The translations under genes were made by a program, and so were the position numbers. From Candidatus Micrarchaeota archaeon (GTDB taxonomy: Archaea; Micrarchaeota; Micrarchaeia; Anstonellales; Bilamarchaeaceae), in contig JBGFRX010000005.1 in assembly GCA_041694885.1 (NCBI GenBank), positions 5,291-69,290 on the forward strand: DNA of 64,000 nucleotides, in the 5' to 3' direction. Below the pieces are notes generated by a model that saw nothing but the letters and a program-made list of their open reading frames with translations, did not search any database and was not told the origin of the DNA. This document shows, one piece after another, positions 4,737-57,684 of this stretch. Numbering within the stretch: position 1 is the stretch's first letter; the number at the start of each line of letters is the position of its first letter.

Positions 4737-4835
4737 GCTCCCATAGTCTAGGCCGGTCAAGGACATCGGACTCTCAATCCTGCCAAAAGCAGGAAGGGAA
4801 CTCCGAGAACTCGAGTTCAAATCTCGATGGGAGCG
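4737..4835 (+). tRNA. tRNA-Glu(CUC) carrying a 24-25 nt intron at the canonical 37/38 position of the anticodon loop
   Basis: Acceptor stem GCTCCCA/TGGGAGC + G73. D stem GTCT/GGAC. Anticodon stem TCGGA/TCCGA with loop CTCTCAA interrupted by 'tcctgccaaaagcaggaagggaa(c)', which contains the hairpin cctgc-caaaa-gcagg. T arm TCGAG-TTCAAAT-CTCGA. Upstream T-rich TATA-like 'tttattatt' at about -32; downstream T tract. Confidence 0.65.
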
Positions 4836-27306: not shown

Positions 27307-30300
27307 GTGGTGGAAGAATGACGGACAAGATAAGGAAAAGGGACGGAAGTGTAGTTGCGTTCGACGCTGGCAAGATAAAAGAGGCAATATGGAAGGCAGT
27401 GCAGGCGGTCGGCGGAAAGGACATGGAGGAATCGGACAGGACCGCTGAATTCGCGGTTAAGCTCCTGAACGAGAAATTCGCCAAAGAAATACCTTCAGTA
27501 GAGGATATACAGGACATCGTGGAAAAGGCGCTCATAGAGCGCGGGCATGCGACCACTGCGAAGGCGTACATACTCTACAGGCACAAAAAAAGCGTTGAAC
27601 GGGAAGTTAAGGGCATAATGGGCGTGAAGGATGACCTCAAGCTCTCGCTCAATTCCATACAGGTCCTGGAGCGCCGCTACCTACTCAAGGACGATTCAGG
27701 AAAGATAATGGAAACACCTGGCGGGATGTTCAGACGGGTCGCGAAGTTCATCGCCTCAGGGGAAAAGGCGTTTGGAGGGGACGAAGAGACGGTGAAGGAC
27801 TTCGAGGAGGCGTTTTACGAGGCGATGATAAAGCTGGAATTCATACCCAATTCCCCGACACTGATGAACGCAGGAACAGGGCTCGGCCAGCTCTCAGCAT
27901 GCTTCGTTCTCGGCGTCACGGACGACTTGGACGACATATTCGAGACAGTGAAGAACACTGCATTGATACACAAGAGCGGTGGAGGCACCGGCTTTTCCTT
28001 CTCTTATCTGCGCCCCAAGGGCGACTTCGTGAAAAGCACTGCCGGCGTGGCGAGCGGACCAATTTCGTTCATGACCATCTTCGACGTGGCGACTAACGTG
28101 GTAAAGCAGGGTGGCAAGCGCAGAGGCGCGAACATGGGCGTGATGGAAATATGGCATCCTGACATCGAAGAGTTCATCACAGTGAAGCAGACGCCGGGCG
28201 TGCTCGAGAACTTCAACATCAGCGTGGGTGTGGACAACAGGTTCATGAAGGCGCTCGAAGAGGATAGCGAATATGACCTCATAAACCCAAGGACCGGCCA
28301 GCAGGTGAGAAAGGTGAAGGCAAAGGGCCTGTTCAACCACATCGCCTATTCCGCGTGGAAGTCAGCAGAGCCAGGCATTCTTTTCATGGACACTATAAAC
28401 AATGCCAATCCAACTCCAAAAGAAAGGATCGTTGCGACTAATCCTTGCATTTCAGGAGACACGCTTGTGTGCACGAACGAAGGGCTCGTAGAGGCGTCCA
28501 AGGTACACAATCCTCACCACGTAATCGGCTCCGACGGCAAATACCACCCTGTGCGCTGGGCTGGCCAGACCGGGGAAAAGGAGCTTTTCCTCGTGAAGAC
28601 GAATGCGGGCTACGAAGCCAAGGCAACTGCGGAGCACAAATTCCTCACTGAAGGCGGATGGAAAGAGGTGCGCGAACTAACTTCCGAAGACCGGCTTGTG
28701 CTCCAGAAACAAGGAAAATTCGGAGCAATGCGCATTGACAGGGAGATGGCGCTCGCGCTCGGCTGGCTTGTTAGCTGCAACCATATGTCCAAAGACGCAC
28801 AGGACGTGATATTTCATTTCGGGGAAGAGGAGAAGGCGGAGCTCCTCCCTGTGTTCAGGGAATATTTCGACCGCATAAACGGAGTGAAAGTGAAGCCGCA
28901 GAAAAGCAGGACAGGAACGCGGCTTAAATATTCGTCCAAAATAGCTGCGAAATTCCGTGAATTCGGGTTCATGCACCTCAAAGCGCGCGAGAAGGAAGTG
29001 CCTTCAGCTGTCTTTTCAATGAACGAGGAATCAGTGGGGAATTTCCTTTCCGCATTGTTCGGCGCAAGCGGCTCTGTGCAAAGCAACAGCGAAAAGGAAG
29101 TAAGCATACGCCTCTCATCCAGCTCCATCAAGCTGCTCAAGCAGGTGCAGGTGCTTCTCCTTCAGTTCGGCATCGTTTCCAGGGTGTACGAAAGAAGGCG
29201 GGGCGGGCATGCGAAAATCCTTCCTGATTCGAAAAGACAAAGCAAGGAGTATTCATGCAAGGCCCAGCACGAACTGATGATAAACAGGGCGAGCATGTTC
29301 CTGTTCATGAACAAGGTTGGTTTTGCGGTTTCATCCAAAAACGAAAAATTCGCGGAGCTTAAGCCCAAAAAGGCATATTCGGATGATATGGATAGTTCGG
29401 TTGCCTCTGTCACGAGCGCAGGATTCGCGCCTGTATACGACCTCACCGAGCCGCAAACGCATTCATTTTCCGCGAATGGCCTCATAGTGCATAATTGCGG
29501 CGAAGTCCCGATGCCCAATTATGAGTCATGCAACCTCGCGAGCATAAACCTCGCGAAATTCGTGGAAATCGACTGGAGCAGGAGCGACTGGAAAAGGAAG
29601 ATCAACTGGAAGCGCCTGCGCTACATAGTCCGGCTCGGCGTGCAGTTCCTCGACAACGTCATCGAGCTGAACAAATACCCGATTCCGAAAATAAAGGAGA
29701 AGACGCTCTACAACAGGCGCATAGGGCTCGGCGTGATGGGCTTCGCGAAGATGCTCTTTAAGATGGGGATAAAGTACGATTCCGACGAGGCGTTTAGGAT
29801 AGGGGAAGAAGTGATGAAATTCATAACCGAGGAGGCGAGAAAGATGAGCCATGAGCTCGGAAGGGCGCGCGGCTCCTTCCCCGGCTTCGCGGACTCCGTG
29901 TGGGCGAAGAAATACGATGGGATGCGCAATGCGACCGTGACCTCGATAGCTCCAACAGGGACCATTTCGATGATTGCGGACACTTCAAGCGGTATAGAGC
30001 CGGTGTTCTCGCTCGCGTACGTGAAGATAGTGATGGATGGCACCCGGCTCTATTATTCAGACGACACGTTCGAGCACGTGCTCAAGGTAAGGGGGCTGTA
30101 CTCGCCAGAGCTGATGCAAAAGGTAATAGAAAGCGGGAGCATCGCAGGGATGGAGGAAATCCCGAAGGAAGTGACGGAAATATTCCGGGTCGCGTACGAC
30201 GTGCGGCCAGAGGCGCACGTGCGCATGCAGGCCGCGTTCCAGAAATACACGGACCTGGCGGTGAGCAAGACCATAAACCTGCCTCCGGACGCCACAGTCG

Positions 30301-30470
30301 AGGACGTGCAGAGCGCGTACATGCTTGCATGGAGAACCGGGTGCAAGGGAATTACCGTTTACAGGGAAGGAAGCAGGGGCGAGGGCGTGCTCGCGAAGGT
30401 CAAGCCAGTTCCAAAGGCAGCGCCTGCTCCTGAAAATCCGAACCCTGTGCAGGAGAGGAACGGACAATAG
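27303..30470 (+). CDS. nrdJ: Adenosylcobalamin-dependent (class II) ribonucleotide reductase with N-terminal ATP cone, interrupted by an intein at the catalytic NPCGE motif
   Basis: ATP cone 'KIRKRDGSVVAFDAGKIKEAIWKA'. Exteins give 'ATNP|CGEVPMP' (NPCGE active site). C-terminal 'TINLPPDATVEDVQSAYMLAWRTGCKGITVYREGSR'. Confidence 0.85.
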   Translation: MSGGRMTDKIRKRDGSVVAFDAGKIKEAIWKAVQAVGGKDMEESDRTAEFAVKLLNEKFAKEIPSVEDIQDIVEKALIERGHATTAKAYILYRHKKSVEREVKGIMGVKDDLKLSLNSIQVLERRYLLKDDSGKIMETPGGMFRRVAKFIASGEKAFGGDEETVKDFEEAFYEAMIKLEFIPNSPTLMNAGTGLGQLSACFVLGVTDDLDDIFETVKNTALIHKSGGGTGFSFSYLRPKGDFVKSTAGVASGPISFMTIFDVATNVVKQGGKRRGANMGVMEIWHPDIEEFITVKQTPGVLENFNISVGVDNRFMKALEEDSEYDLINPRTGQQVRKVKAKGLFNHIAYSAWKSAEPGILFMDTINNANPTPKERIVATNPCISGDTLVCTNEGLVEASKVHNPHHVIGSDGKYHPVRWAGQTGEKELFLVKTNAGYEAKATAEHKFLTEGGWKEVRELTSEDRLVLQKQGKFGAMRIDREMALALGWLVSCNHMSKDAQDVIFHFGEEEKAELLPVFREYFDRINGVKVKPQKSRTGTRLKYSSKIAAKFREFGFMHLKAREKEVPSAVFSMNEESVGNFLSALFGASGSVQSNSEKEVSIRLSSSSIKLLKQVQVLLLQFGIVSRVYERRRGGHAKILPDSKRQSKEYSCKAQHELMINRASMFLFMNKVGFAVSSKNEKFAELKPKKAYSDDMDSSVASVTSAGFAPVYDLTEPQTHSFSANGLIVHNCGEVPMPNYESCNLASINLAKFVEIDWSRSDWKRKINWKRLRYIVRLGVQFLDNVIELNKYPIPKIKEKTLYNRRIGLGVMGFAKMLFKMGIKYDSDEAFRIGEEVMKFITEEARKMSHELGRARGSFPGFADSVWAKKYDGMRNATVTSIAPTGTISMIADTSSGIEPVFSLAYVKIVMDGTRLYYSDDTFEHVLKVRGLYSPELMQKVIESGSIAGMEEIPKEVTEIFRVAYDVRPEAHVRMQAAFQKYTDLAVSKTINLPPDATVEDVQSAYMLAWRTGCKGITVYREGSRGEGVLAKVKPVPKAAPAPENPNPVQERNGQ
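28446..29495 (+). mobile_element. 350-aa intein with degenerate LAGLIDADG blocks, inserted at the RNR catalytic Cys
   Basis: Starts 'CISGDTLV' and ends 'IVHN' followed by the +1 Cys of NPCGE. Blocks 'LALGWLVSCNH' and 'GNFLSALFGASGSV'. Confidence 0.8.
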
Positions 30471-42548: not shown

Positions 42549-43952
42549 TTATGCGAGTTTCCACAGGGTCGTTTCGATGCGCCCTCTCTCGCTGCTTATT
42601 CTCTTATCCCATTCGGGGTTAATTTTGACTTTTCTGGAAAGCCGCGCTTTTTTTATTTCAATTGCCTTATCCACTTCCGTTGCCGCGATGTCTGTTCCAA
42701 GCATCTTGTTGATTTCAGATGATTTCAGGTCCTCTATGTATTTTCCTTCCTTCGAAAGCAGTGCAACCATTTTCCCCACTCTTTCGTGCGCATCCCGGAA
42801 AGGGACTCCGTTCATTGCAAGCAAGTCCGCAAGCGCAGTAGCGTTCGCATAGTTCTTCTTTATCTCCAACACCATCTTCTTTTCATCGAATTCAAGTGTG
42901 GGCACGAGCTCAGCCACCATCGCAAGCGCCTCCTTCGCACTATCCAGGCCGTTCATTAGCGCAAATTTCGTCTCCTGCGAATCCGCATTGTAGCCGTTCA
43001 TGAGCCCCTTCTGCACAACGAGCGTGTGAATGAGATTGCCGTAAAGCCGTCCTGTTCTCCCCCGCACCAGTTCCAGCACATCGGGATTCTTCTTGTTCGG
43101 CATTATCGAGCTGCCGGTCGTATATTCATCCCCCATGAGTATAAGCTCCTTCTGCGACAGCCAGATTATCTCCTCTGCAAACCGCGAGAGTTTTGCCATA
43201 AGCTCGCTCAGCGCAAAAAGAACTTCCGCCTCAATCTCTCCGCGCTGGCTTATGGCATCCATCTCGTTTTCAATTATGGAATCAAAGCCGAGCAGTGCCG
43301 CTGTTCTTTTTCGGTCTGTTTTCCAGTCGGTTCCGCTTATCGCGCACGCGCCCAAAGGACTTCTGTTCACCTTTTTGTACGCATCGAATATCCGCTCCAA
43401 ATCCCGCTCAAAGGACTGCACATATGACTCGCACCAGAAGGAAACCATTACGGGCTGCGCAACCTGCGTATGAGTGTAAGACGGCATAGCAAAATCGTTT
43501 TCAGAGAGCGCTGCGAATGATTTCTGCAACTGCACAACCAAATCAGCGACAGCGAGCAGTTCGTCCCTAAGGTAAAGCCGCGTGTCCACAGCTACCTGAT
43601 CGTTTCTGGAGCGCGCTGCGCGCATCTTCTTCCCAAAAGAAGTGATTTTCGTAACCTCGTTCTCCACATTCATGTGCACGTCTTCCAGTTCCTTTTTCAG
43701 ATTGAATTTCCCCTCTTTGCGGGACTTCAGGACTGCTTTCAGCGCGGAAACAATAACATCTGCCTCCTCTTTCTTCACTATGCCCCGCTCGCCCAGCATT
43801 TTCACATGAGCAATCGAGCCCAGAATATCGTATTTGACGAGCCGGGAGTCCAACTGCACGTTCTCGCTGCTCATGTAATCGAGCACTTTTTCTTTCGGGC
43901 TTTTGGAGAATCTTCCTCCCCAGAGCATTTTTTTGCCTTTCATTTCTTCCAT
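42549..43952 (-). CDS. argH: Argininosuccinate lyase
   Basis: Fumarase/aspartase family 'GSSIMPNKKNPD' signature; about 467 aa. Confidence 0.9.
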   Translation of the reverse strand: MEEMKGKKMLWGGRFSKSPKEKVLDYMSSENVQLDSRLVKYDILGSIAHVKMLGERGIVKKEEADVIVSALKAVLKSRKEGKFNLKKELEDVHMNVENEVTKITSFGKKMRAARSRNDQVAVDTRLYLRDELLAVADLVVQLQKSFAALSENDFAMPSYTHTQVAQPVMVSFWCESYVQSFERDLERIFDAYKKVNRSPLGACAISGTDWKTDRKRTAALLGFDSIIENEMDAISQRGEIEAEVLFALSELMAKLSRFAEEIIWLSQKELILMGDEYTTGSSIMPNKKNPDVLELVRGRTGRLYGNLIHTLVVQKGLMNGYNADSQETKFALMNGLDSAKEALAMVAELVPTLEFDEKKMVLEIKKNYANATALADLLAMNGVPFRDAHERVGKMVALLSKEGKYIEDLKSSEINKMLGTDIAATEVDKAIEIKKARLSRKVKINPEWDKRISSERGRIETTLWKLA

Positions 43953-44017
43953 CCCGTTTTCAGGTGGTTTTCAGTTCCCTCTTTTCTCTTTCCCGCATTT
44001 TATTTCGGGTTCGTTTT

Positions 44018-45277
44018 CTATTTTTTTCCGTACTTCATCTTATACGCAGTTGAATATTGCATGAGCCAGAGCTTTGTGAACGCCCCTCCTTCCTTCTGGT
44101 CGAAGCTGCTGCCCTTTCCATACGTTGCGACATTGTGACTATAGAGTGCGTTCGGGCTCTTCCGCGAGGCGACAGTGGCAGCTCCTTTGTACAATTTCAT
44201 CTTCACAGAGCCACTAACCTGGCTCTCCACCTCGTCGTTGAATTTGTCCAGCGCAACTTTCAGGGGGGAGAACCATTTCCCCGTGTAAATAATATCAGAG
44301 TACAAGTTGTCGGTGTAATTCTTGTGAAATAGTTCATCCTTTGTGAGCACGTATTTTTCCAAGTCCCTGTGTGCGGGAAGAACAACGAGCGCAGCAGGTG
44401 CCTCGTACGCCTCCCTGCTCTTGAATCCGATTGTTCTGTCTTCCATGTGCTCTATCCTTCCGACCCCATGTTCACCCGCTGTTTTGGTGAGCTGCCTTAT
44501 CATCTCCACTTCATCCCTGTAAACTGTGCCATCAATCCCGATCTCCACAGGCACGCCTTTCTCAAAGACGATGTCAATGTACGCGGGTTTGTCAGGTGCC
44601 TTTTCAGCCGGCTTTGTCCATTCGTACGCATCTTCAGGAACTGCCTGCTCTGGAAATTCTATAGGCCCTGCCTCTATGCTTCTTCCCCACAGATTCTCAT
44701 CAATGGAATAGGGGTTATCCCTCGTAATCTTCACTTCCAATCCCCTTTGCTTCGCATATTCTATCTCTTCGTCCCGCACCAGTCCCCAGTCCCTTACAGG
44801 CGCAATCACTTTCATGGAACTTAATGCAGCAACCCCTGCATCTATGCGCACCTGATCATTTCCTTTCCCAGTTGAGCCGTGGCAGACCGCCTGCGCACCT
44901 TCCTTCTTTCCCACCTCCACAAGCTTCTTGGCAATGAGCGGTCTTCCGAGCGCGGTGAAAAGGGGATAATTGCCCTCGTACATAGCGTTCGCCTTTAGCC
45001 CAGGCCAGATGTATTCCCTGACGAATTCCTTTTTCGTCTCCAAACAGTAATGCTTCTTCGCACCTATCTTTTTCGACTTTGCTTCTACGCCCTTGAGTTC
45101 CCTCTCCTGGCCCAGGTCCAGCGTGCAGGTAATAACTTCCTTGCCCATTTCCTGCAAAAGCGAGGCGATAACCGTGGTATCCACCCCACCTGAGAATGCG
45201 AGCACGACCTTCTCTATGTCCTTGTATTCATTCTTTGTTTTCGTCTTGATTTTTTCAAATAAATCCATAAGCCCCAC
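44018..45277 (-). CDS. argG: Argininosuccinate synthase
   Basis: PP-loop 'AFSGGVDTTV'; about 419 aa. Confidence 0.9.
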   Translation of the reverse strand: MGLMDLFEKIKTKTKNEYKDIEKVVLAFSGGVDTTVIASLLQEMGKEVITCTLDLGQERELKGVEAKSKKIGAKKHYCLETKKEFVREYIWPGLKANAMYEGNYPLFTALGRPLIAKKLVEVGKKEGAQAVCHGSTGKGNDQVRIDAGVAALSSMKVIAPVRDWGLVRDEEIEYAKQRGLEVKITRDNPYSIDENLWGRSIEAGPIEFPEQAVPEDAYEWTKPAEKAPDKPAYIDIVFEKGVPVEIGIDGTVYRDEVEMIRQLTKTAGEHGVGRIEHMEDRTIGFKSREAYEAPAALVVLPAHRDLEKYVLTKDELFHKNYTDNLYSDIIYTGKWFSPLKVALDKFNDEVESQVSGSVKMKLYKGAATVASRKSPNALYSHNVATYGKGSSFDQKEGGAFTKLWLMQYSTAYKMKYGKK

Positions 45278-45287
45278 CCTCTTCGTT

Positions 45288-46211
45288 CTATTTCTCCAAT
45301 ATTTTTAACAATATTGCCTTTTGCATGTGCAGTCGGTTCTCCGCCTGGTCAAAGACGACGCTATGTTTGCCATCTATTATCTCCGCAGTCTGCTCATAGC
45401 CGCGCATCGCAGGAAGACAGTTCATGAATATGAATTCCTTTTTCGCGTATTTCGCTATTTCCGGATTGACCTGATAGGGCATGAGCTGCTTTATGCGCGC
45501 TTCCTTTTCAGAAGCAGGTACATGGTAGCTCATCCACGAATCAGTATACGCAATATCCGCATCCTTTATCGCCGACTTCGCATCACTTGTAATGGTTACT
45601 TTTCCGCCCGTTCGTTTTGCAATCTCCACATACTCCTTTTTGGGCATCATTTCAACAGGGCATCCAATGGAAATTTCCATCCCCACTATCGCGCAGCCCA
45701 GGATAAGAGAGTGCGTGACGTTGTTGTTTCCGTCTCCCAAATAGCAGAGCTTGAGCCCTTCCAATCTGCCCCTCTTCTCTTTAATGGTAAGGAGGTCTGA
45801 AAGAACTTGCACAGGATGCTCATCGTTACTCAGCCCGTTTATCACGGGTATTCCGGAATTCTCATCCAATTTTGAAAGTTTCTCGTGCTCAAAAACCCTT
45901 GCCATTATGCAATCCACATATCTTCCATACACCTTCGCAGTGTCTTCTATGCTTTCTTTTGCGCCAAGAGGCGTTTGCGACGTTTCAATCACAACCGCAT
46001 CTCCACCGAGCTCCTTTATCCCAACCTCGAAGCTCACCCGTGTCCGCAAGGAGGGCTTTTCGAAAAGCATGAGCAGCGTCTTTCCATCCAATTTCTTCCT
46101 GTACTTCTTGGGATCTTTCTTCACTTCAGCAGCCAAATCGAGCAGCGCTTCCACTTCTTTCCTGTTCAAATCAGCAATCGAAAGCAGGGACTTTCCCTTC
46201 ATATTGTTCAT
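45288..46211 (-). CDS. argF: Ornithine carbamoyltransferase
   Basis: 'STRTR' carbamoyl-phosphate motif, 'HCLP'; sits inside the arg cluster. Confidence 0.85.
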   Translation of the reverse strand: MNNMKGKSLLSIADLNRKEVEALLDLAAEVKKDPKKYRKKLDGKTLLMLFEKPSLRTRVSFEVGIKELGGDAVVIETSQTPLGAKESIEDTAKVYGRYVDCIMARVFEHEKLSKLDENSGIPVINGLSNDEHPVQVLSDLLTIKEKRGRLEGLKLCYLGDGNNNVTHSLILGCAIVGMEISIGCPVEMMPKKEYVEIAKRTGGKVTITSDAKSAIKDADIAYTDSWMSYHVPASEKEARIKQLMPYQVNPEIAKYAKKEFIFMNCLPAMRGYEQTAEIIDGKHSVVFDQAENRLHMQKAILLKILEK

Positions 46212-47215
46212 GACAATCCCTCTTTTTCCTCAAACCCGAACATGATATTCATGTTCTGCACTGCCTGGCCTGACGCGCCCTTGAGCAGGTTGTCAAGGAC
46301 AGCGACTATCACGAGCCGGTTGTTCTCGTCAATCTCAAAGCCGCCGAGCAGCAGCTTGTTCGTGTTCTGCACCGCATGTATATCAGCTATCCCTTCAACC
46401 ACCTGCACAAAAGGACTGCCTTTGTAGAACTCTGCGTACATCTTCTTTATTTCGGCGGCGTTGTGCTTTTTTTTCAGGATTACATGGCTTACAATCATCA
46501 TCCCCCTGAATGTGTCCATTACCTGAGGAGTGAAGCCCACTTTGGTTTTTATGAACTGCTCAATCTCGTATTTGTGCCGGTGCCTGGTTAGGTTGTAGGC
46601 GATTATATTGTCCTTCGTGAGCGTCTTGTCCTTCGCATACGCGGATTCCTTTCCTGCTCCGCTCCAGCCGGACTTGCAGTCAAAGATTACGTATTTGGCA
46701 AATTTTTGCACGGGGTAGGAACTCGCTATCATTCCAGTTGCATAGCAGCCCGGATTTGCAACGATCTTTGCCTTCTTTATTTTTTCCCTGAACAGTTCAG
46801 GAAGCCCGTAAATCGCCTTTCTTTCTTTATCTTTATGCCCGAAACCGTAGACCTTCTCATAATCCTCCGGCTTTTTGAAGCGATAGTCCGCGCTCAGGTC
46901 TATAATCCTGCATTTCAGCTTCGGCACGAATTCCATTGCCTTGGTGTGCGGAAGAGCAAGGAACACAACATCCAAATTCATTTCGTTTATTTCATCAATA
47001 CTGAAGCCAGTGTAAGCAAGCTCCCCTTCAAAGTCCGGATAAAGTTCCTTTACTTTTTTCCCCGCATTGTGCCCGCTGTTCAGAGCCAGAAGCTCAACTT
47101 TCCCATGTTTGGAAAGCACTTTCACGAGTTCGTGGCCCGTATAGCCACTCGCACCTATTATTCCTGCCTTGATTTTCATTGCATTGCCCCCAACACTTTC
47201 TTTCATCCCGTTCAT
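46208..47215 (-). CDS. argC: N-acetyl-gamma-glutamyl-phosphate reductase
   Basis: 'KAGIIGASGYTG' NAD(P)-binding start; catalytic Cys region 'NPGCYATG'. Confidence 0.9.
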   Translation of the reverse strand: MNGMKESVGGNAMKIKAGIIGASGYTGHELVKVLSKHGKVELLALNSGHNAGKKVKELYPDFEGELAYTGFSIDEINEMNLDVVFLALPHTKAMEFVPKLKCRIIDLSADYRFKKPEDYEKVYGFGHKDKERKAIYGLPELFREKIKKAKIVANPGCYATGMIASSYPVQKFAKYVIFDCKSGWSGAGKESAYAKDKTLTKDNIIAYNLTRHRHKYEIEQFIKTKVGFTPQVMDTFRGMMIVSHVILKKKHNAAEIKKMYAEFYKGSPFVQVVEGIADIHAVQNTNKLLLGGFEIDENNRLVIVAVLDNLLKGASGQAVQNMNIMFGFEEKEGLS

Positions 47216-48370
47216 CTACAGCCTCTTCAATACCTTTTCGAGTATTTTGATCGCTTCGTCTATTTCCTTTTTCCTGACAGTGAGCGGAGGAAGAAAGCGC
47301 AGCGTGAATTCGTTCGGCGCGTTTGCAATGAGCCCGTTTTTCAAACATTTTTCCACCACTTTCTTCGCATCAGCTTCAATTTCAGCGCCTATCATGAGCC
47401 CCTTTCCCCTGACTTTTTTCACTTTTTCGAGTGCGGAGAGTTTTTTCAGGAAATAGGCGCCTGCTTCAGACGCGTTTTCCATAAACCCCTTCCGCATAAT
47501 GCAATCAATAGTGGCGTTTGCAGCAGCGCACGCGAGCGGATTCCCTCCGAAAGTGGATGCGTGGTTTCCCTTCCCGAATCCGTATTTCGAAATGCAGGCG
47601 CCTATCGGAACTCCATTCGCGAGCCCCTTCGCAGTAGTTATTATATCAGGGGTTATTCCTTCATGCTGGTATGCGAAAAATTTCCCTGTTCTTCCGTTCC
47701 CTGTCTGCACCTCGTCCAAAATGAGCAGGACATTCTTTCTTTTGCATATCCCGCTCACTTCAGCGAGAAAGCCCTCTTTTGGGACTATTACCCCCCCTTC
47801 GCCTTGTATGGGCTCGAGCATCACTGCTGCCGTATTACTGTTTATCGCATTCTCTATTGCCTTGGCATCCCCATAGTCCACGAAAACGAAGCCCTCGACA
47901 AGAGGGAAAAACGGCTTCCTGAACGCCTTCTTCCAGGTTGCGGAAAGCGCGCCGTGCGTCCTTCCGTGGAACGAGCCCTTGCACACCACGAACTCCTTCT
48001 TCCCGGTTATTTTTTTCGCGAGCTTTATCGCCGTCTCGTTCGCCTCCGCACCCGAGTTGCAGAAAAAGCACTTCTTCAGCCCGGATATTTTCACGAGTTT
48101 TTCCGCAAGCACGACCTGCTGCTCAGTATAGTAATAGTTGCTTATCTGAAGAAGCGTTTTCGCCTGCTTTGCAATCGCCTTTCCGACTTCCTTGTTGCAG
48201 TGCCCTATGGCAATGCATCCGAGCCCGCCCAGCATGTCAAGGTATTTTTTCCCGTCCTTGTCGTAAACAACGCATCCGCTGCCCTTCTCAGCCACCAAAT
48301 CGAACCGGCTGTAGGCATGCATTATGTATTCCGAGTCCTTTTCCTTCACTTCATCAGCGTTCATTTCCAA
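47216..48370 (-). CDS. argD: Acetylornithine aminotransferase (class III PLP)
   Basis: 'LILDEVQTGNGRTGKFFA' and 'TTAKGL' (PLP Lys) motifs. Confidence 0.85.
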   Translation of the reverse strand: MEMNADEVKEKDSEYIMHAYSRFDLVAEKGSGCVVYDKDGKKYLDMLGGLGCIAIGHCNKEVGKAIAKQAKTLLQISNYYYTEQQVVLAEKLVKISGLKKCFFCNSGAEANETAIKLAKKITGKKEFVVCKGSFHGRTHGALSATWKKAFRKPFFPLVEGFVFVDYGDAKAIENAINSNTAAVMLEPIQGEGGVIVPKEGFLAEVSGICKRKNVLLILDEVQTGNGRTGKFFAYQHEGITPDIITTAKGLANGVPIGACISKYGFGKGNHASTFGGNPLACAAANATIDCIMRKGFMENASEAGAYFLKKLSALEKVKKVRGKGLMIGAEIEADAKKVVEKCLKNGLIANAPNEFTLRFLPPLTVRKKEIDEAIKILEKVLKRL

Positions 48371-49199
48371 CTACCTCAGTCCCTATTCCTTCCTCGGTGA
48401 ATATTTCGAAAAGCAGGGAATGCGGCACAGTGCCGTTTATCAGATGCGCCTTCCTGCAGCCCGCTTCCACTGCTTCCATGCATGCCTCCACCTTTGGTAT
48501 CATACCCTTGGTTATCACTCCATTCTTTATCAGCCTGCGCGCCTGCGCAATAGAGAGGTGGGGGATAAGGGCTCCGTTCTCCATTACTCCGTCAACATCC
48601 GTCAGAATGGTGAGCTTCACCGCTTTGAGCGCAACGGCGACCTTCACTGCAGCACTATCAGCGTTTATGTTGTACGTCTGCCCGTCCTTTGTCCCGAGCG
48701 GAGATATGACCGAAGTTATTCCCCCATCAAGCATCTTCTTGATTTTTTCCACATCCACCTTCTTCACTTCGCCCACGAACCCCAGTTTTTCGTCCTTCTG
48801 CTCCACGTGCATGCAATCGTAAAGCGCCTCGCTCCTGCAGTGCATTTTCTTCAGGGCTGCCCTTATCTCATCGTTGATTTTCGCGAACACCTTTCGTATT
48901 ATCTCCACTGTTTCCGCATCAGTCACGCGCAGGCCGTTTACGAAAACCGGCTTTGCGCCCAATTTCTCCATCTCCCTGGTGACTTCAGGCCCGCCGCCGT
49001 GTACTATAACCGGCTTTATCCCAACCGCCTTCAGGAACGCAACGTCCTTCATCACCGATTCCTTCACTAAGTCGTTCACCATCGCTTTCCCGCCGTACTT
49101 TATCACCATCACTTTGCCCCTGAACTTGTGGAGATAAGGCAGCGCCTCGTCTATCAGGATTTTTGCTTTTTCAATATGGTTCATTTTCATCACATCCAT
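48354..49199 (-). CDS. argB: Acetylglutamate kinase
   Basis: Amino-acid kinase fold 'VIKYGGKAM', 'VHGGGPE'. Confidence 0.85.
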   Translation of the reverse strand: MDVMKMNHIEKAKILIDEALPYLHKFRGKVMVIKYGGKAMVNDLVKESVMKDVAFLKAVGIKPVIVHGGGPEVTREMEKLGAKPVFVNGLRVTDAETVEIIRKVFAKINDEIRAALKKMHCRSEALYDCMHVEQKDEKLGFVGEVKKVDVEKIKKMLDGGITSVISPLGTKDGQTYNINADSAAVKVAVALKAVKLTILTDVDGVMENGALIPHLSIAQARRLIKNGVITKGMIPKVEACMEAVEAGCRKAHLINGTVPHSLLFEIFTEEGIGTEVVGNER

Positions 49200-49232
49200 T
49201 TTGTTCGCTTAAGCGGTGAATCTGCGACATCT

Positions 49233-50402
49233 TCACGTAGGATAGTGCGCATTTATTTTCACGTACTCCTCGCTCATGTCGCATCCGTACGCAGTCGCTT
49301 CCTCCTTTCCTGAATTCATATCTATCGTTATCTTCAGCTCCTTTTGATTCATTATTCCCTTCACCTTTCCATAATCGAAATCCACAGTAACCCCGTTCTT
49401 CACTATCTGCATGTTCCCGAAATGCACATCCACCTTCAGTTCGTCGAACTTTGCTCCGGAATTGCCCAGGGCGCAGACTATCCTTCCCCAGTTCGGGTCG
49501 TTTCCGTAAACGGCGCATTTCACCAGATTCGAACTCACGACCGATTTTGCAAGCGCTTTTGCGGAATTTTCATTCTTTGCGCCTTTCACATGCACTTCGA
49601 GCAGTTTAGTCGCCCCTTCTCCATCCGCAGCTATTTTCTTCGCAAGCTGCGTGCAGATCTCATCCATCGCCTGCTGGAATCTCTTCCCATCAACCTTTCC
49701 GGCATTTCCGTTCGCCATGGCTATGCACATGTCGCTCGTGGAGGTATCCATGTCCACAGTCAGCATGTTGAACGACTTGCCCGCTGATTTTTTCAGGGCT
49801 TTCTGCAGCGCATCCGGTTGCACGTCCGCGTCAGTGCAGATGAATGCGAGCATTGTAGCCATGTTCGGGTGCACCATTCCTGCGCCTTTTGCTATTGCAC
49901 CTATGGAGAAATTATCCATTTTCACAAAGACCTCTTTCTTCACCCTGTCGGTTGTGAGTATTGCCTCCGCTACCTTTCCGTCCTTTGAAAGTTCCCCCTT
50001 TATTCCCCTGATGCCATTTTCTATTTTCTCCATGGGCAGGTAATGGCCTATTATGCCAGTCGAAGCCACGAGCACGTGCTTTTCATCTATCCCAAGCTCC
50101 TGTGCAGCAAGTTTGGCGGTCTTCTCAGCAGCTGCAATTCCCGGTTTCCCCGTGCACACGTTCGCGACTCCGGAGTTTATCACTATTGCCTGCGCTTTTC
50201 CTCCTTTAAGGTGCTCCATCGTAACATAGAGCGGAGCGCCTTTCACCCTGTTCTGCGTATAGATTGCAGCCGCGCTGCACAGGTGCTCCGAGAATATCAC
50301 CCCGAAGTCCAAATTGCTTTTTTTTATACCGATATGCTTACCCAGCGCCGTGAATCCATCAACTTTGCCTATCGCGTTTTCGTCCATGCTTTCATCGCGC
50401 AT
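49233..50402 (-). CDS. argJ: Bifunctional ornithine acetyltransferase / N-acetylglutamate synthase
   Basis: ArgJ autoproteolytic 'ATML' threonine site ('HPNMATMLAFICTDA'); about 389 aa. Confidence 0.9.
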   Translation of the reverse strand: MRDESMDENAIGKVDGFTALGKHIGIKKSNLDFGVIFSEHLCSAAAIYTQNRVKGAPLYVTMEHLKGGKAQAIVINSGVANVCTGKPGIAAAEKTAKLAAQELGIDEKHVLVASTGIIGHYLPMEKIENGIRGIKGELSKDGKVAEAILTTDRVKKEVFVKMDNFSIGAIAKGAGMVHPNMATMLAFICTDADVQPDALQKALKKSAGKSFNMLTVDMDTSTSDMCIAMANGNAGKVDGKRFQQAMDEICTQLAKKIAADGEGATKLLEVHVKGAKNENSAKALAKSVVSSNLVKCAVYGNDPNWGRIVCALGNSGAKFDELKVDVHFGNMQIVKNGVTVDFDYGKVKGIMNQKELKITIDMNSGKEEATAYGCDMSEEYVKINAHYPT

Positions 50403-50447
50403 TTTCGCCTATTTAATCGTTGCGCTCCATTCCTGCAAAAATATTTC

Positions 50448-50463
50448 AAAAATGTTCCATTTG
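50448..50463. promoter_or_regulatory. Perfect 7-2-7 palindrome TGTTCCA-TT-TGGAACA between the divergent argJ and regulator promoters; candidate operator
   Basis: Direct read. It sits between the TATA-like 'aaatattttt' for argJ (minus strand) and 'ttaaattttaaaa' for the gene at 50567. Confidence 0.4.
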
Positions 50464-50566
50464 GAACAAATTAGTTAAATTTTAAAACCTTGGCGCATAT
50501 TCATGGCAAGCGGACCGGAAAATCAGGGCGAAATGAAGCGGAGCAGCATGGAAAGGGCGGAACGAA

Positions 50567-51178
50567 ATGAAAAGAAAGAATGGGAATAAGACGAGCGAAC
50601 TCGTGTGGCTATACGTGAAGAGAAGACCTTTCATAAAGGAGATGCTGAAATATGATTTGGTGAACTACAGCCGCCTCGCGCGTCGGCTCTGCAGGGATAT
50701 TTTTCGTTCGCAGGACTATTTCCACGCAGTGAAAGTAGCACTCATACGCCTCAGCTCCAGGATAAGGAAAAAGGAAGGGGAGATGGAAGGAAAGGTGCTC
50801 GAAGTACTGAAGAAGAGCACGATTACGATAAGAAACAAAGTGGTCGTATTGATTTCCTCTGCTCCGCTCCAGCTCAATGCGATATCATCGGTGAAAAGCG
50901 GCAACTTCTACACTTACATAGCCGAGTGCGGCGAAACGCAGAAGGCGATGCGCTCTAAAAGTGTAATTTCCGCAGAGGAGAACCTCAACCTTTTCGTACT
51001 TTCGAGTTCTCCAGATATTGAAAATACACCTGGAGTGATTTCCACCGTGCTGCACATGCTCGCTGCGGAAGGCATAAACGTTAACGATTTCATCTCTTCC
51101 TATACTGACACTTTGCTCGTAATAAGGGAATCGGACACTTCGCGCGTGTACGAGCTTTTGTCTTCGCTTACGAAATAG
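50567..51178 (+). CDS. Predicted amino-acid-metabolism regulator: N-terminal winged-helix-like segment plus C-terminal ACT domain(s), COG2150-like
   Basis: 'ELVWLYVKRRPFIKEMLKYDLVNYSRLARRL' helix-turn-helix-like. C-terminal 'NLFVLSSSPDIENTPGVISTVLHMLAAEGINVNDF' ACT-like ligand-binding fold. Divergent from argJ. Confidence 0.45.
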   Translation: MKRKNGNKTSELVWLYVKRRPFIKEMLKYDLVNYSRLARRLCRDIFRSQDYFHAVKVALIRLSSRIRKKEGEMEGKVLEVLKKSTITIRNKVVVLISSAPLQLNAISSVKSGNFYTYIAECGETQKAMRSKSVISAEENLNLFVLSSSPDIENTPGVISTVLHMLAAEGINVNDFISSYTDTLLVIRESDTSRVYELLSSLTK

Positions 51179-56661: not shown

Positions 56662-56767
56662 AAAATAATTGCTCTTTTCGCCTTTATATAATGCGCAGTC
56701 GTTCTGGTACGAATTCAGGATTTCCTCATCCCAGCGAGTTCGCAGATTAAGACATTTTTCAGCGAAT

Positions 56768-57256
56768 CTATCTGATTTTATAATGAGCGATTATTCCCCG
56801 CGCCCGTGCAACTGTCCTGAACATGTTTTTCCAGTGGCCCCCTTTCCAGTATATTTTCCCGCATTTTCTGCATATCCAGAATTTCCTTTTTCTTCTATAT
56901 ACGTCAGGCGGGGCTTCGGTTCTGGAGACTTTCCCCGCGATTTGAAAGGTGCCGTTGCATTTCGGGCAGCGGGTGTTTTTTGGGAAAGTTATTTTGTAAC
57001 TATAGTTACAAAAGACCTGTGCAATCTGCTCCCCTATGTCAACGGAGTTGATGAGCAAAAATTCCGCCTTCCTTTTCCTAAGAGAGGGAAGCATTTTCGC
57101 ATCGCGGGTAAGAAGGACGAGGTTGTGCCTTTTGACGTACGAGATTATGCGCGAATCCGGCTTTCCCCTCGAATAATCGTATTCGCAGTAAACGCCGAGT
57201 ATGCGCAGCCATTCCGCCAATTTTTTCAGCATCGCATCAGCAAGGAACTTTTGCAT
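56768..57256 (-). CDS. Mut7-C RNAse domain protein (PIN-like plus C-terminal zinc ribbon; DUF82)
   Basis: 'MLKKLAEWLRILGVYCEYD' N-terminus; 'CPKCNG...CRKCGKIYWKGGHW' zinc ribbon. Confidence 0.65.
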   Translation of the reverse strand: MQKFLADAMLKKLAEWLRILGVYCEYDYSRGKPDSRIISYVKRHNLVLLTRDAKMLPSLRKRKAEFLLINSVDIGEQIAQVFCNYSYKITFPKNTRCPKCNGTFQIAGKVSRTEAPPDVYRRKRKFWICRKCGKIYWKGGHWKNMFRTVARARGIIAHYKIR

Positions 57257-57375
57257 GAATGGATTTGCGACGGCTTTATATATAAAGTGTGGAATGAGCA
57301 GCTTAGGGTGCCGCTCTGGGCAGCAGGCCTTCAGGAGGTGATAAAGGAAGAAAATAAATTAAAAAACAAAAATGA

Positions 57376-57684
57376 CTAACTGAGCAGGATCTTCACGAAG
57401 ACGTCGTCAGGGACCTTTATCCTCATGATGTTCCTTATGCTCTTCTCGTCCGCTTCCACATAAAGCAGGCGCTTGGAGATTCTCTTCTGCCAGTGCTCGT
57501 AGGTATCGCTCCCATCCCCGCACGGAGTCCTTCTTGTGGTTATGGAAAGGATCCTTCTCGGCATAGGAATCGGTCCGCGGATTTTCATTCCGAAGCGCTT
57601 CGCGAGCTCCTTTATCTGCGCTATCACGCTGAGTATGTTCTTCGGCTTCTCTCCGCTGAGCGTTATTTTTACTTTGCTTGCCAT
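57376..57684 (-). CDS. rps10: 30S ribosomal protein S10 (uS10)
   Basis: About 102 aa, 'KVKITLSGEKPKNILSVIAQIKELAKRFGMKIRGPIPMPRR'; immediately downstream of the EF-1alpha gene. Confidence 0.9.
   Translation of the reverse strand: MASKVKITLSGEKPKNILSVIAQIKELAKRFGMKIRGPIPMPRRILSITTRRTPCGDGSDTYEHWQKRISKRLLYVEADEKSIRNIMRIKVPDDVFVKILLS

Follow-up and report, generated by a model that had tools for sequence, protein, structure and literature searches.

Organisation of the arg locus

We analysed a 64,000-nucleotide (nt) stretch of contig JBGFRX010000005.1 from a Candidatus Micrarchaeota archaeon (assembly GCA_041694885.1), hereafter the window, in which the arginine biosynthesis genes argJBDCFGH lie next to a small gene that may control them. 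The seven genes form one co-directional block on the minus strand (42549-50402), with small gaps or overlaps between neighbours. The small gene is transcribed divergently from argJ across a 164-nt spacer and encodes a 203-amino-acid (aa) protein. We use REG as a working name for this protein and its gene, and also for its relatives in the family. Both the seven-gene block and the divergent gene beside it had been proposed in an earlier reading made without database searches (the sequence-only reading), and both are confirmed here, by Pfam matches on every gene of the block and by the open reading frame (ORF) of REG. Coordinates are collected in Table 1.

Table 1. Genes, promoter elements and protein domains at the argJ-REG locus (positions in the window)
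Feature	Position	Strand	Basis and remarks
argJ	49233-50402	-	Pfam ArgJ, E 3e-145; first gene of the operon
argB	48354-49199	-	Pfam AA_kinase, E 2e-40
argD	47216-48370	-	Pfam Aminotran_3, E 8e-115
argC	46208-47215	-	Pfam Semialdhyde_dh and Semialdhyde_dhC_1
argF	45288-46211	-	Pfam OTCace_N and OTCace
argG	44018-45277	-	Pfam Arginosuc_synth and Arginosuc_syn_C
argH	42549-43952	-	Pfam Lyase_1 and ASL_C2
REG, gene for a 203-aa DUF7523 + ACT_7 protein, candidate arginine-pathway regulator	50567-51178	+	ORF and Pfam
REG N-terminal basic four-helix domain, aa 1-84, putative DNA-binding/dimerisation head	50567-50818	+	
REG degenerate first ACT-like unit, aa 85-146	50819-51004	+	AF2 strands 85-97, 107-111, 114-120, 133-146; Foldseek
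REG canonical ACT domain, aa 147-203, putative ligand sensor	51005-51175	+	Pfam ACT_7, ACT, ACT_9
Perfect palindrome TGTTCCA-TT-TGGAACA, candidate operator	50453-50468		Sequence; top-scoring instance of the family motif
AT-rich TATA-like element, putative argJ promoter, AAATATTTTT on the minus strand	50437-50446	-	Read from the sequence
AT-rich TATA-like element, putative REG promoter, TTAAATTTTAAAA	50475-50487	+	Read from the sequence

The spacer holds a palindrome with 7-nt arms and a 2-nt centre, which precedes both start codons, that of argJ by 51 nt and that of REG by 99 nt. The sequence-only reading had described it as perfect and as lying between two TATA boxes; it is perfect and does lie between two TATA-like elements, but 5 nt to the right of positions 50448-50463, where it had been placed. 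Each TATA-like run sits 6 nt from the palindrome, so that the flanks are symmetric and the arms abut or overlap both putative positions of the TFB-recognition element (BRE). A repeat search extended the symmetry to 22-nt arms that are 73% complementary, an imperfect inverted repeat (I1) that includes the argJ TATA-like element. Rfam gave no RNA element in the spacer, its only matches within the 64-kb window being two tRNAs. A scan for sigma-70 promoters, a model that is irrelevant for an archaeon, returned nothing. A terminator scan flagged the palindrome as a hairpin followed by a T-run on the minus strand; this candidate was rejected, as both flanking genes start there.

Domain architecture and fold of REG

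Profile searches recovered the ACT domain that had been expected at the C-terminus, with a match to ACT_7 at residues 150-199 (32 bits, above the Pfam gathering score of 27), but not the expected helix-turn-helix (HTH). The AF2 model derived from 40 homologues (pLDDT 92.5) divides the protein into three parts: four helices, a degenerate ACT-like unit (85-146) and a canonical ACT domain (147-203). The ACT fold is modelled with the elements E133-146, H157-167, E172-178, E181-187 and H188-202. Membership in the ACT superfamily is indicated by the Pfam matches to ACT, ACT_7 and ACT_9, by the AF2 topology, by an invariant P155/G156 pair in the ligand loop and by Foldseek matches to aspartokinases. 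The Foldseek alignments cover about 140-150 columns and pair REG with VC0802 (PDB 1zvp) as well as with the regulatory tandem-ACT domains of aspartokinases, with E-values of 2e-7 to 6e-6. Similarly, when PDB sequences were searched with the family profile, every match was to an ACT domain, from aspartokinases or proteins like them (hmmsearch against 3l76, E 2e-6). Across 40 members P155, G156, N171, S177, Y179 and T182 are invariant and T180 and D181 are conserved in at least 90%, and the ETPGV, GIN and SCYTDT motifs of the ACT domain are retained in other phyla. The sensor of REG comprises a genuine ACT domain and, ahead of it, another unit that is ACT-like but degenerate; this refines the ACT-type C-terminus of the sequence-only reading to a tandem pair.

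Pfam DUF7523 (PF24367) matches the window REG at residues 17-123 with 18.0 bits (E 0.004), below its gathering score of 27. The same model is matched by all 40 aligned family members at E<=1 (best 1e-9), and the distant members L053, L054 and L066 pass the cutoff with 32-33 bits. Alignment of profiles with hhalign joined the REG clade to the clade of Thermococcales, Sulfolobales and Odinarchaeia over the full length (probability 100%, E 4e-51), and the clade of the window to the Pyrococcus furiosus protein at E 1e-29. Given the sub-cutoff Pfam score, the matches in all 40 aligned members and the full-length profile alignment, sequence comparison identifies the window REG as a homologous but divergent member of DUF7523. 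Its C-terminal ACT_7 match and its length of 203 aa fit the architecture of the family, whose members mostly span about 190-240 aa.

The N-terminal domain is strongly basic (23 K/R against 9 D/E, net charge +14), the ACT units being neutral to acidic, and it contains both of the best-conserved motifs of the family, SELVWLYVKRRP and VNYSALAR. The AF2 models (pLDDT 89-92) show helices at 6-19, 21-28 and 34-46 and a long one at 52-82, with no beta hairpin (wing). A winged-helix-like N-terminus, as had been suggested from the sequence, was rejected on these models and on the lack of any HTH or winged-helix profile match in 40 members. The head is without structural relative in the PDB. It is plausible as a nucleic-acid-binding domain, a role that homology does not establish.

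A palindromic motif upstream of REG genes

A locus scan with one genome per species yielded 73 REG loci, nearly all from Micrarchaeota, of which 67 were used for the clustering of neighbours. Aligned DNA upstream of REG in all loci revealed a conserved 16-bp palindrome, TGTT[A/C]CA-AA-TG[G/T]AACA. A symmetrised weight matrix built from the upstream regions of the Micrarchaeota loci finds this motif upstream of REG in about 55-60 of the 67 loci, with the window site as top scorer, in line with the conservation that the sequence-only reading required of a genuine operator. Scores of at least 15 bits were reached at 66 sites in 1.207 Mb of loci, and 55 of them lie within 333 nt upstream of REG, which is less than 2% of the sequence; the counts in these regions are partly circular, because the matrix was trained on them. 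Of the remaining 11 sites, at least five are either immediately in front of argG or flanked by other arginine-pathway genes; a sixth adjoins a gene resembling arginine deiminase (ADI).

Independent support comes from the rarity of the motif elsewhere, from its presence at REG genes that have no adjacent arg gene, and from its transfer to other phyla. The window site scores 25.3 bits and is the sole site of at least 15 bits in 64 kb, where the only other match of note is a weak intragenic one of 9.3 bits; when the window was shuffled 50 times, the scores reached 19.9 at most. Such agreement of the window site with a motif that orthologues keep in their upstream regions is far beyond chance. REG genes without an arg neighbour that carry the motif (L015, L024, L031, L042 and L044) fit the expectation for autoregulation.

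When the Micrarchaeota-trained matrix was applied to nine loci from other phyla, all outside the training set, the best match of the whole locus fell in a spacer flanking REG in seven. Six sites scored 12.5-19.6 bits, five of them among these top matches and the sixth being the second-ranked match of the Odinarchaeia locus. They are TGTTCTATTTGCAACT in P. furiosus (16.9 bits), TGTTATATTTGCAACA in Thermococcus (19.6), TGTTGTATATGGAACG in Odinarchaeia (16.7), TGTTGCAAATAAAACA in Nanohaloarchaea (18.3), one site in Sulfolobales (12.5) and the better of two in Desulfurococcales (13.2 and 11.6 bits). Furthermore, a divergent subclade of Micrarchaeota and Bathyarchaeia has the half-site variants TGTATCA and TGTACCA alongside altered residues in N-terminal helices 1 and 3, a pattern that co-evolution of factor and site would produce.

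The candidate operator, perfect in the window, is degenerate in its closest relatives L002 and L067 (CGCTCCATTTGGGACA, 13.1 bits). Elsewhere in the window, a perfect palindrome TTGTAAC-TATA-GTTACAA at 56994-57011 shares the GTTACA half-site of the family operator, though in everted order; two predicted ORFs cover it, 56669-57379 (+) and 56768-57256 (-), and it may be a coincidence.

Promoter geometry

In most Micrarchaeota the second-best matrix match is an extra TGTTACA-like half-site 21 bp upstream of the palindrome (46 of 54 loci, with a weak score in several). It is followed directly by a TATA-like element of the TTTATATA type, and the palindrome abuts the REG start codon. Because half-site, TATA-like element and palindrome line up before the start codon, the relatives' own REG promoter, which is apparently leaderless, is covered from BRE to +1, the classical archaeal layout of auto-repression. 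Thermococcales present the mirror order of palindrome, TATA-like element and half-site across the carA/argG promoter. In the subclade of the window (L002, L003, L004 and L067) the palindrome is instead located upstream of the REG TATA-like element, and in the close relative L002 the equivalent TATA-like element stands about 25 nt before the start codon.

The leader of the window REG has features of its own. In the region 50503-50589 it contains two tandem copies of about 30 nt (AAGCGGA...CGAAATGA). At 50503 an ATG that is out of frame occupies exactly the start-codon position of the close relatives L002 and L067, which in them follows the TATA-like element by about 25 nt; it opens an upstream ORF of 28 codons, overlapping the REG start at 50567. 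Since the start-codon position of the relatives holds this out-of-frame ATG, the window REG probably has a leader of about 55-60 nt, whereas the relatives look leaderless.

Gene neighbourhoods and spread of the family

The 74 close homologues of REG are about 200 aa long and all of the DUF7523/ACT_7 type, the nearest coming from metagenome-assembled genomes (MAGs) of Micrarchaeota (DPANN). Clustering of neighbouring genes identified argG (46 of 67 loci) and argH (44 of 67) as by far the commonest families, the next occurring in at most 20 loci. Linkage was counted in the 55 loci whose upstream sequence extends over 3 kb or more: divergent argG/argH accompany REG in 36, and some arginine-pathway gene (argG/H, a NAGS-type acetyltransferase/argB, carA-carB, an M20 deacylase or an ADI/DDAH-like amidinotransferase) lies within 3.5 kb in 45. 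REG keeps its position at the head of the cluster whatever the content, be it argG-argH only (L002, L067), argJBDCFGH (the window) or other sets (L032, L064). Linkage of orthologues to arg genes, as opposed to unrelated functions, was one of the circumstances on which the sequence-only reading depended, and it holds in Micrarchaeota and also in Thermococcales, Sulfolobales, Odinarchaeia, Woesearchaeota, Bathyarchaeia and Caldarchaeales.

Searching 1.84 billion representatives with a profile returned 994 clusters (50% identity) at E<=1e-10, mostly full-length proteins of 190-240 aa, with members in P. furiosus, Thermococcus, Sulfolobales, Desulfurococcales, Odinarchaeia, Woesearchaeota and Nanohaloarchaea. 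The relatives in Odinarchaeia, Thermococcus, Pyrococcus and Bathyarchaeia also carry DUF7523. The genomic context of distant members, taken from look-ups of the exact proteins, falls into recurrent arrangements. REG is followed by argG-argH-carA-carB in Thermococcus and Sulfolobales, by argG-argH in Odinarchaeia and a YNP archaeon, and by co-directional carA-carB in P. furiosus COM1, where the trp operon is divergent. It is itself divergent from argG-argH in Woesearchaeota-like archaea, from carA-carB in Caldarchaeales and from argG in Bathyarchaeia. In Nanohaloarchaea it stands beside an arginase-family gene and in Desulfurococcales it is divergent from a polar-amino-acid ABC transporter.

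Some of these loci deserve separate description. The P. furiosus COM1 member is located at CP003685.1:1814428-1815108, between the trp and carA-carB genes, and with the spacer to carA it takes up L074:5001-5775. The best motif match of this 10.7-kb locus lies 5 nt past the REG stop codon, just upstream of the carA TATA-like element, and a second half-site, TGTTACA, follows 39 bp beyond it. In the Desulfurococcales MAG (L079:3889-4000), two motif copies 29 bp apart occupy the spacer that REG shares with the transporter genes (SBP_bac_3, BPD_transp_1 and ABC_tran), which suggests that the target there is uptake rather than synthesis. Three proteins of about 480-510 aa from high-GC archaea (P0119, P0146 and P0209) contain two complete DUF7523+ACT modules in tandem and are covalently duplicated versions of the family.

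The relatives closest to the window, L002 (3104-5099) and L067, show 81-100% identity in the aligned part of REG; their genes run in the order FBP aldolase/phosphatase, argH, argG and divergent REG, and argJ, B, D, C and F are missing. In the window a 5.1-kb argF-C-D-B-J block stands between argG and REG (45288-50402). This block was either gained in the window or lost in the relatives, and lies under the same divergent control region. Six other Micrarchaeota loci (L009, L023, L049, L061, L062 and L072) have an amidinotransferase/arginine-deiminase-like gene of about 320 aa between argG and REG, with weak DDAH_eukar and ADI Pfam matches. Together with argG-argH it hints at a module for citrulline/arginine interconversion in genomes without the rest of the pathway.

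Other features of the window lie apart from the arg locus. A 1050-aa ORF at 27318-30470 (+) had been suspected to be carB; this was rejected, the ORF being a ribonucleotide reductase large subunit (ATP-cone and RNR barrel) split by an intein that carries a LAGLIDADG endonuclease domain. A 99-nt tRNA at 4737-4835 (+) was matched by Rfam (49.7 bits) and missed by ARAGORN; an intron is probable here, a common feature in archaea.

A proposed mechanism and its alternatives

The domain make-up of REG, its gene linkage, the motif and the conservation of the motif are established, and they support the central claim of the sequence-only reading, a regulator that is transcribed away from the arg operon, carries an ACT sensor, acts at a palindromic operator and is of neither ArgR nor Lrp type; what the ligand is, whether the DNA is bound and with which sign are matters of inference. 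We propose that REG would regulate transcription as a one-component factor devoted to arginine metabolism. The DUF7523 head with its four helices and basic charge would bind, as a dimer, the 16-bp palindrome TGTTCCATTTGGAACA, which lies exactly between the putative divergent promoters of argJ and REG, at the putative BRE positions. The C-terminal tandem ACT-like module would sense an amino acid, most probably L-arginine, and ligand-bound REG would occupy the operator and block TFB/TBP or RNA polymerase at both promoters. In a manner resembling TrpY, argJBDCFGH and the gene of REG itself would both be repressed. Binding of the motif by REG is the step in which we have good confidence. Repression of the arg operon, rather than its activation, seems the somewhat better reading of the promoters. 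For arginine as the ligand, which is suggested by gene context, the chances appear evenly balanced; it is the most plausible single candidate because it is the sole metabolite common to all gene contexts. Overall, we consider it reasonably probable that REG represses the arg operon and its own gene through the palindrome in an arginine-dependent way.

Beside the partial circularity of the motif counts, several observations weigh against this proposal. Of dinucleotide shuffles of the 164-nt spacer, 12% contain a perfect inverted repeat whose arms are 7 nt or longer, and about 35 such repeats exist in the whole window; by itself the window palindrome is not statistically unusual. Its geometry is moreover atypical for the family, because the extra half-site found 21 bp away in most relatives is missing and because the site lies upstream of the REG TATA-like element, not over the start site. 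Archaeal activators, too, typically have their sites upstream of BRE/TATA (PMC6737238). No HTH, winged-helix or other recognised DNA-binding Pfam profile matches the N-terminal domain in the 40 family members. About 10 of the 55 loci have no arginine gene nearby, and citrulline or aspartate are also plausible as ligands because most Micrarchaeota relatives have only argG-argH.

There are four competing explanations. Were the palindrome a product of chance or a non-regulatory structure such as a bidirectional terminator hairpin, with the position of the gene coincidental, the frequency of such repeats in shuffled spacers and the hairpin and T-run flagged on the minus strand would be accounted for; however, no gene ends at the palindrome and both neighbours start there, and the motif, which hardly occurs anywhere else, is conserved at REG in about 55 loci as well as in other phyla, so that this explanation is already contradicted and retains a negligible probability. 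REG could also be devoid of DNA-binding function and serve as a stand-alone ACT subunit or sensor on ArgG, carbamoyl-phosphate synthetase (CPSase) or N-acetylglutamate kinase (NAGK), like aspartokinase beta or the small subunits of acetohydroxyacid synthase (AHAS), with another factor at the palindrome. Its only significant sequence and structure matches are indeed to enzyme regulatory ACT domains, no HTH profile is matched, and in several phyla REG is co-directional with argG/carA, as a member of the operon would be. Yet the motif tracks REG even without arg neighbours and covaries with the N-terminal sequence; the 84 N-terminal residues are highly conserved and strongly basic, unlike those of known ACT regulatory subunits; and transcription factors under autoregulation are typically encoded divergently from a neighbour with which they share a control region. 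We regard this explanation as improbable.

The remaining two explanations keep the protein and the operator and alter the sign or the signal. REG might activate the arg operon, binding upstream of BRE/TATA when arginine is scarce and recruiting TBP/TFB, with its own gene still repressed. The sites upstream of the TATA-like element in the window and at the arg-side promoter of most Micrarchaeota loci occupy the usual place of the archaeal activators Tar, Ptr2 and TFB-RF1 (PMC6737238). In Thermococcales, by contrast, the palindrome abuts the carA/argG TATA-like element and a half-site lies near the expected start, a sandwich of repressor type. The window palindrome, at 6 bp from each TATA-like element, overlaps both BRE positions, and end-product control of biosynthetic operons is usually repression, so that activation appears unlikely, if less so than a role without DNA binding. 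The regulator may otherwise be as proposed and respond to citrulline, ornithine, aspartate, argininosuccinate or a signal related to carbamoyl phosphate. Citrulline salvage may be what is under control where only argG-argH adjoin REG, as in most Micrarchaeota relatives; carAB are neighbours in Pyrococcus and Caldarchaeales, ADI-like amidinotransferases are frequent neighbours, and the fold leaves specificity unsettled, Thr or Lys being the ligands of the closest ACT structures. Against this, arginine is common to every context (full pathway, argGH, carAB, NAGS/argB, the arginase of Nanohaloarchaea and the amino-acid ABC transporter of Desulfurococcales), and the conservation of the ACT pocket motifs across all contexts argues for a single ligand. 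A different ligand is doubtful, though it is the foremost of the four competitors to the arginine-responsive repressor that we favour.

Significance for archaeal arginine control

We know of no ArgR homologue in Archaea. A full-text literature search found no description of a dedicated regulator for archaeal arginine biosynthesis, and likewise no paper mentioning DUF7523 or PF24367, nor anything relevant on PF1712 or on COG2150, to which the sequence-only reading had likened REG. The earlier reading of a single locus can be widened to a pan-archaeal family with a defined operator. DUF7523-ACT proteins may or may not, with about equal plausibility, constitute a general arginine regulator of Archaea, a functional counterpart of ArgR made from unrelated parts, whose operator of about 16 bp, TGTTnCA-ww-TGnAACA, would be recognisable from DPANN (Micrarchaeota, Woesearchaeota and Nanohaloarchaea) via Thermoproteota and Asgard (Odinarchaeia) to Thermococcales. 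If so, a widespread domain of unknown function would gain a function, a ligand class, an operator sequence and the core of a regulon (argG/argH, carAB and argJBDCF); the operator would have been conserved over very deep phylogenetic distances; and TrpY-style logic with an ACT sensor would have a second, independent case in archaeal amino-acid control. Orthologues in genetically tractable hyperthermophiles (P. furiosus COM1 and Thermococcus) make the hypothesis directly testable with established in vitro transcription systems.

Comparison with known regulatory systems

The closest functional parallel is the tryptophan-responsive repressor TrpY, in which DNA is bound by the N-terminal part and the ligand by an ACT-like C-terminal part. 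In Methanothermobacter thermautotrophicus it is encoded divergently from trpEGCFBAD, binds repeated boxes in overlapping divergent promoters and autoregulates, and repression of the operon needs the end-product (PMC6737238). REG resembles it as a small archaeal regulator divergent from an amino-acid biosynthesis operon, with the palindrome in the spacer shared with argJ and, in relatives, the half-site 21 bp away. It differs in being longer, in having two ACT-like units against one, and in its N-terminal domain (DUF7523), operator and pathway. Membership in the TrpY family (NCBIfam NF053754) was rejected, as REG scores 14 bits, in the ACT region only, and P0074 12.7 bits, against a cutoff of 180; the other NCBIfam matches of REG are weak and fall to the ACT region of aspartokinases. 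The divergent layout with its boxes supports the view that REG may work like TrpY, not that it belongs to the TrpY family. The Thermococcus homologue of TrpY, TK1227, is a separate protein and does not regulate trp (PMC6737238).

The sequence-only reading had held that REG has neither the ArgR nor the Lrp architecture, and no model of either type matches. ArgR combines a winged helix with an arginine-binding domain that forms hexamers, and it binds 18-bp ARG boxes. ArgR/AhrC are similar to REG in predicted role, exerting arginine-dependent control of arg/car genes via palindromic promoter operators, being often autoregulated and often encoded in or near arg clusters. There is however no relation of sequence or fold: the head of REG is helical and has no wing, its sensors are of ACT type and its candidate site is TGTTCCA-NN-TGGAACA, and none of the 40 members matches Arg_repressor or Arg_repressor_C at E<=1. 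Lrp/AsnC regulators (feast/famine regulatory proteins, FFRP, such as LysM and BarR) share with REG the plan of one-component archaeal amino-acid sensors, with a DNA-binding head joined to a beta-alpha-beta-beta-alpha-beta ligand domain (RAM, ACT-like), often beside the genes they control. The head of REG is not a winged HTH, and its sensor matches ACT_7 and the aspartokinase-type tandem ACT, not RAM; matches to HTH_AsnC-type, HTH_24 or AsnC_trans_reg models were absent in REG and the 40 members.

The best sequence and structure matches for REG residues of about 60-203 are the tandem-ACT domains of aspartokinases and VC0802 (ACT_7), which bind amino acids at ACT interfaces. These are enzyme domains or stand-alone ACT proteins, without the basic N-terminal domain and without association with an operator. 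DUF7523, whose archaeal members are annotated as 'ACT domain-containing protein' or 'DUF7523 family protein', is the family of REG itself and has no assigned function; the link to arginine and the operator are proposed here. Overall, REG looks like a one-component amino-acid-sensing regulator of known type with a head that lacks a structural relative in the PDB, and a candidate for the archaeal arginine regulator.

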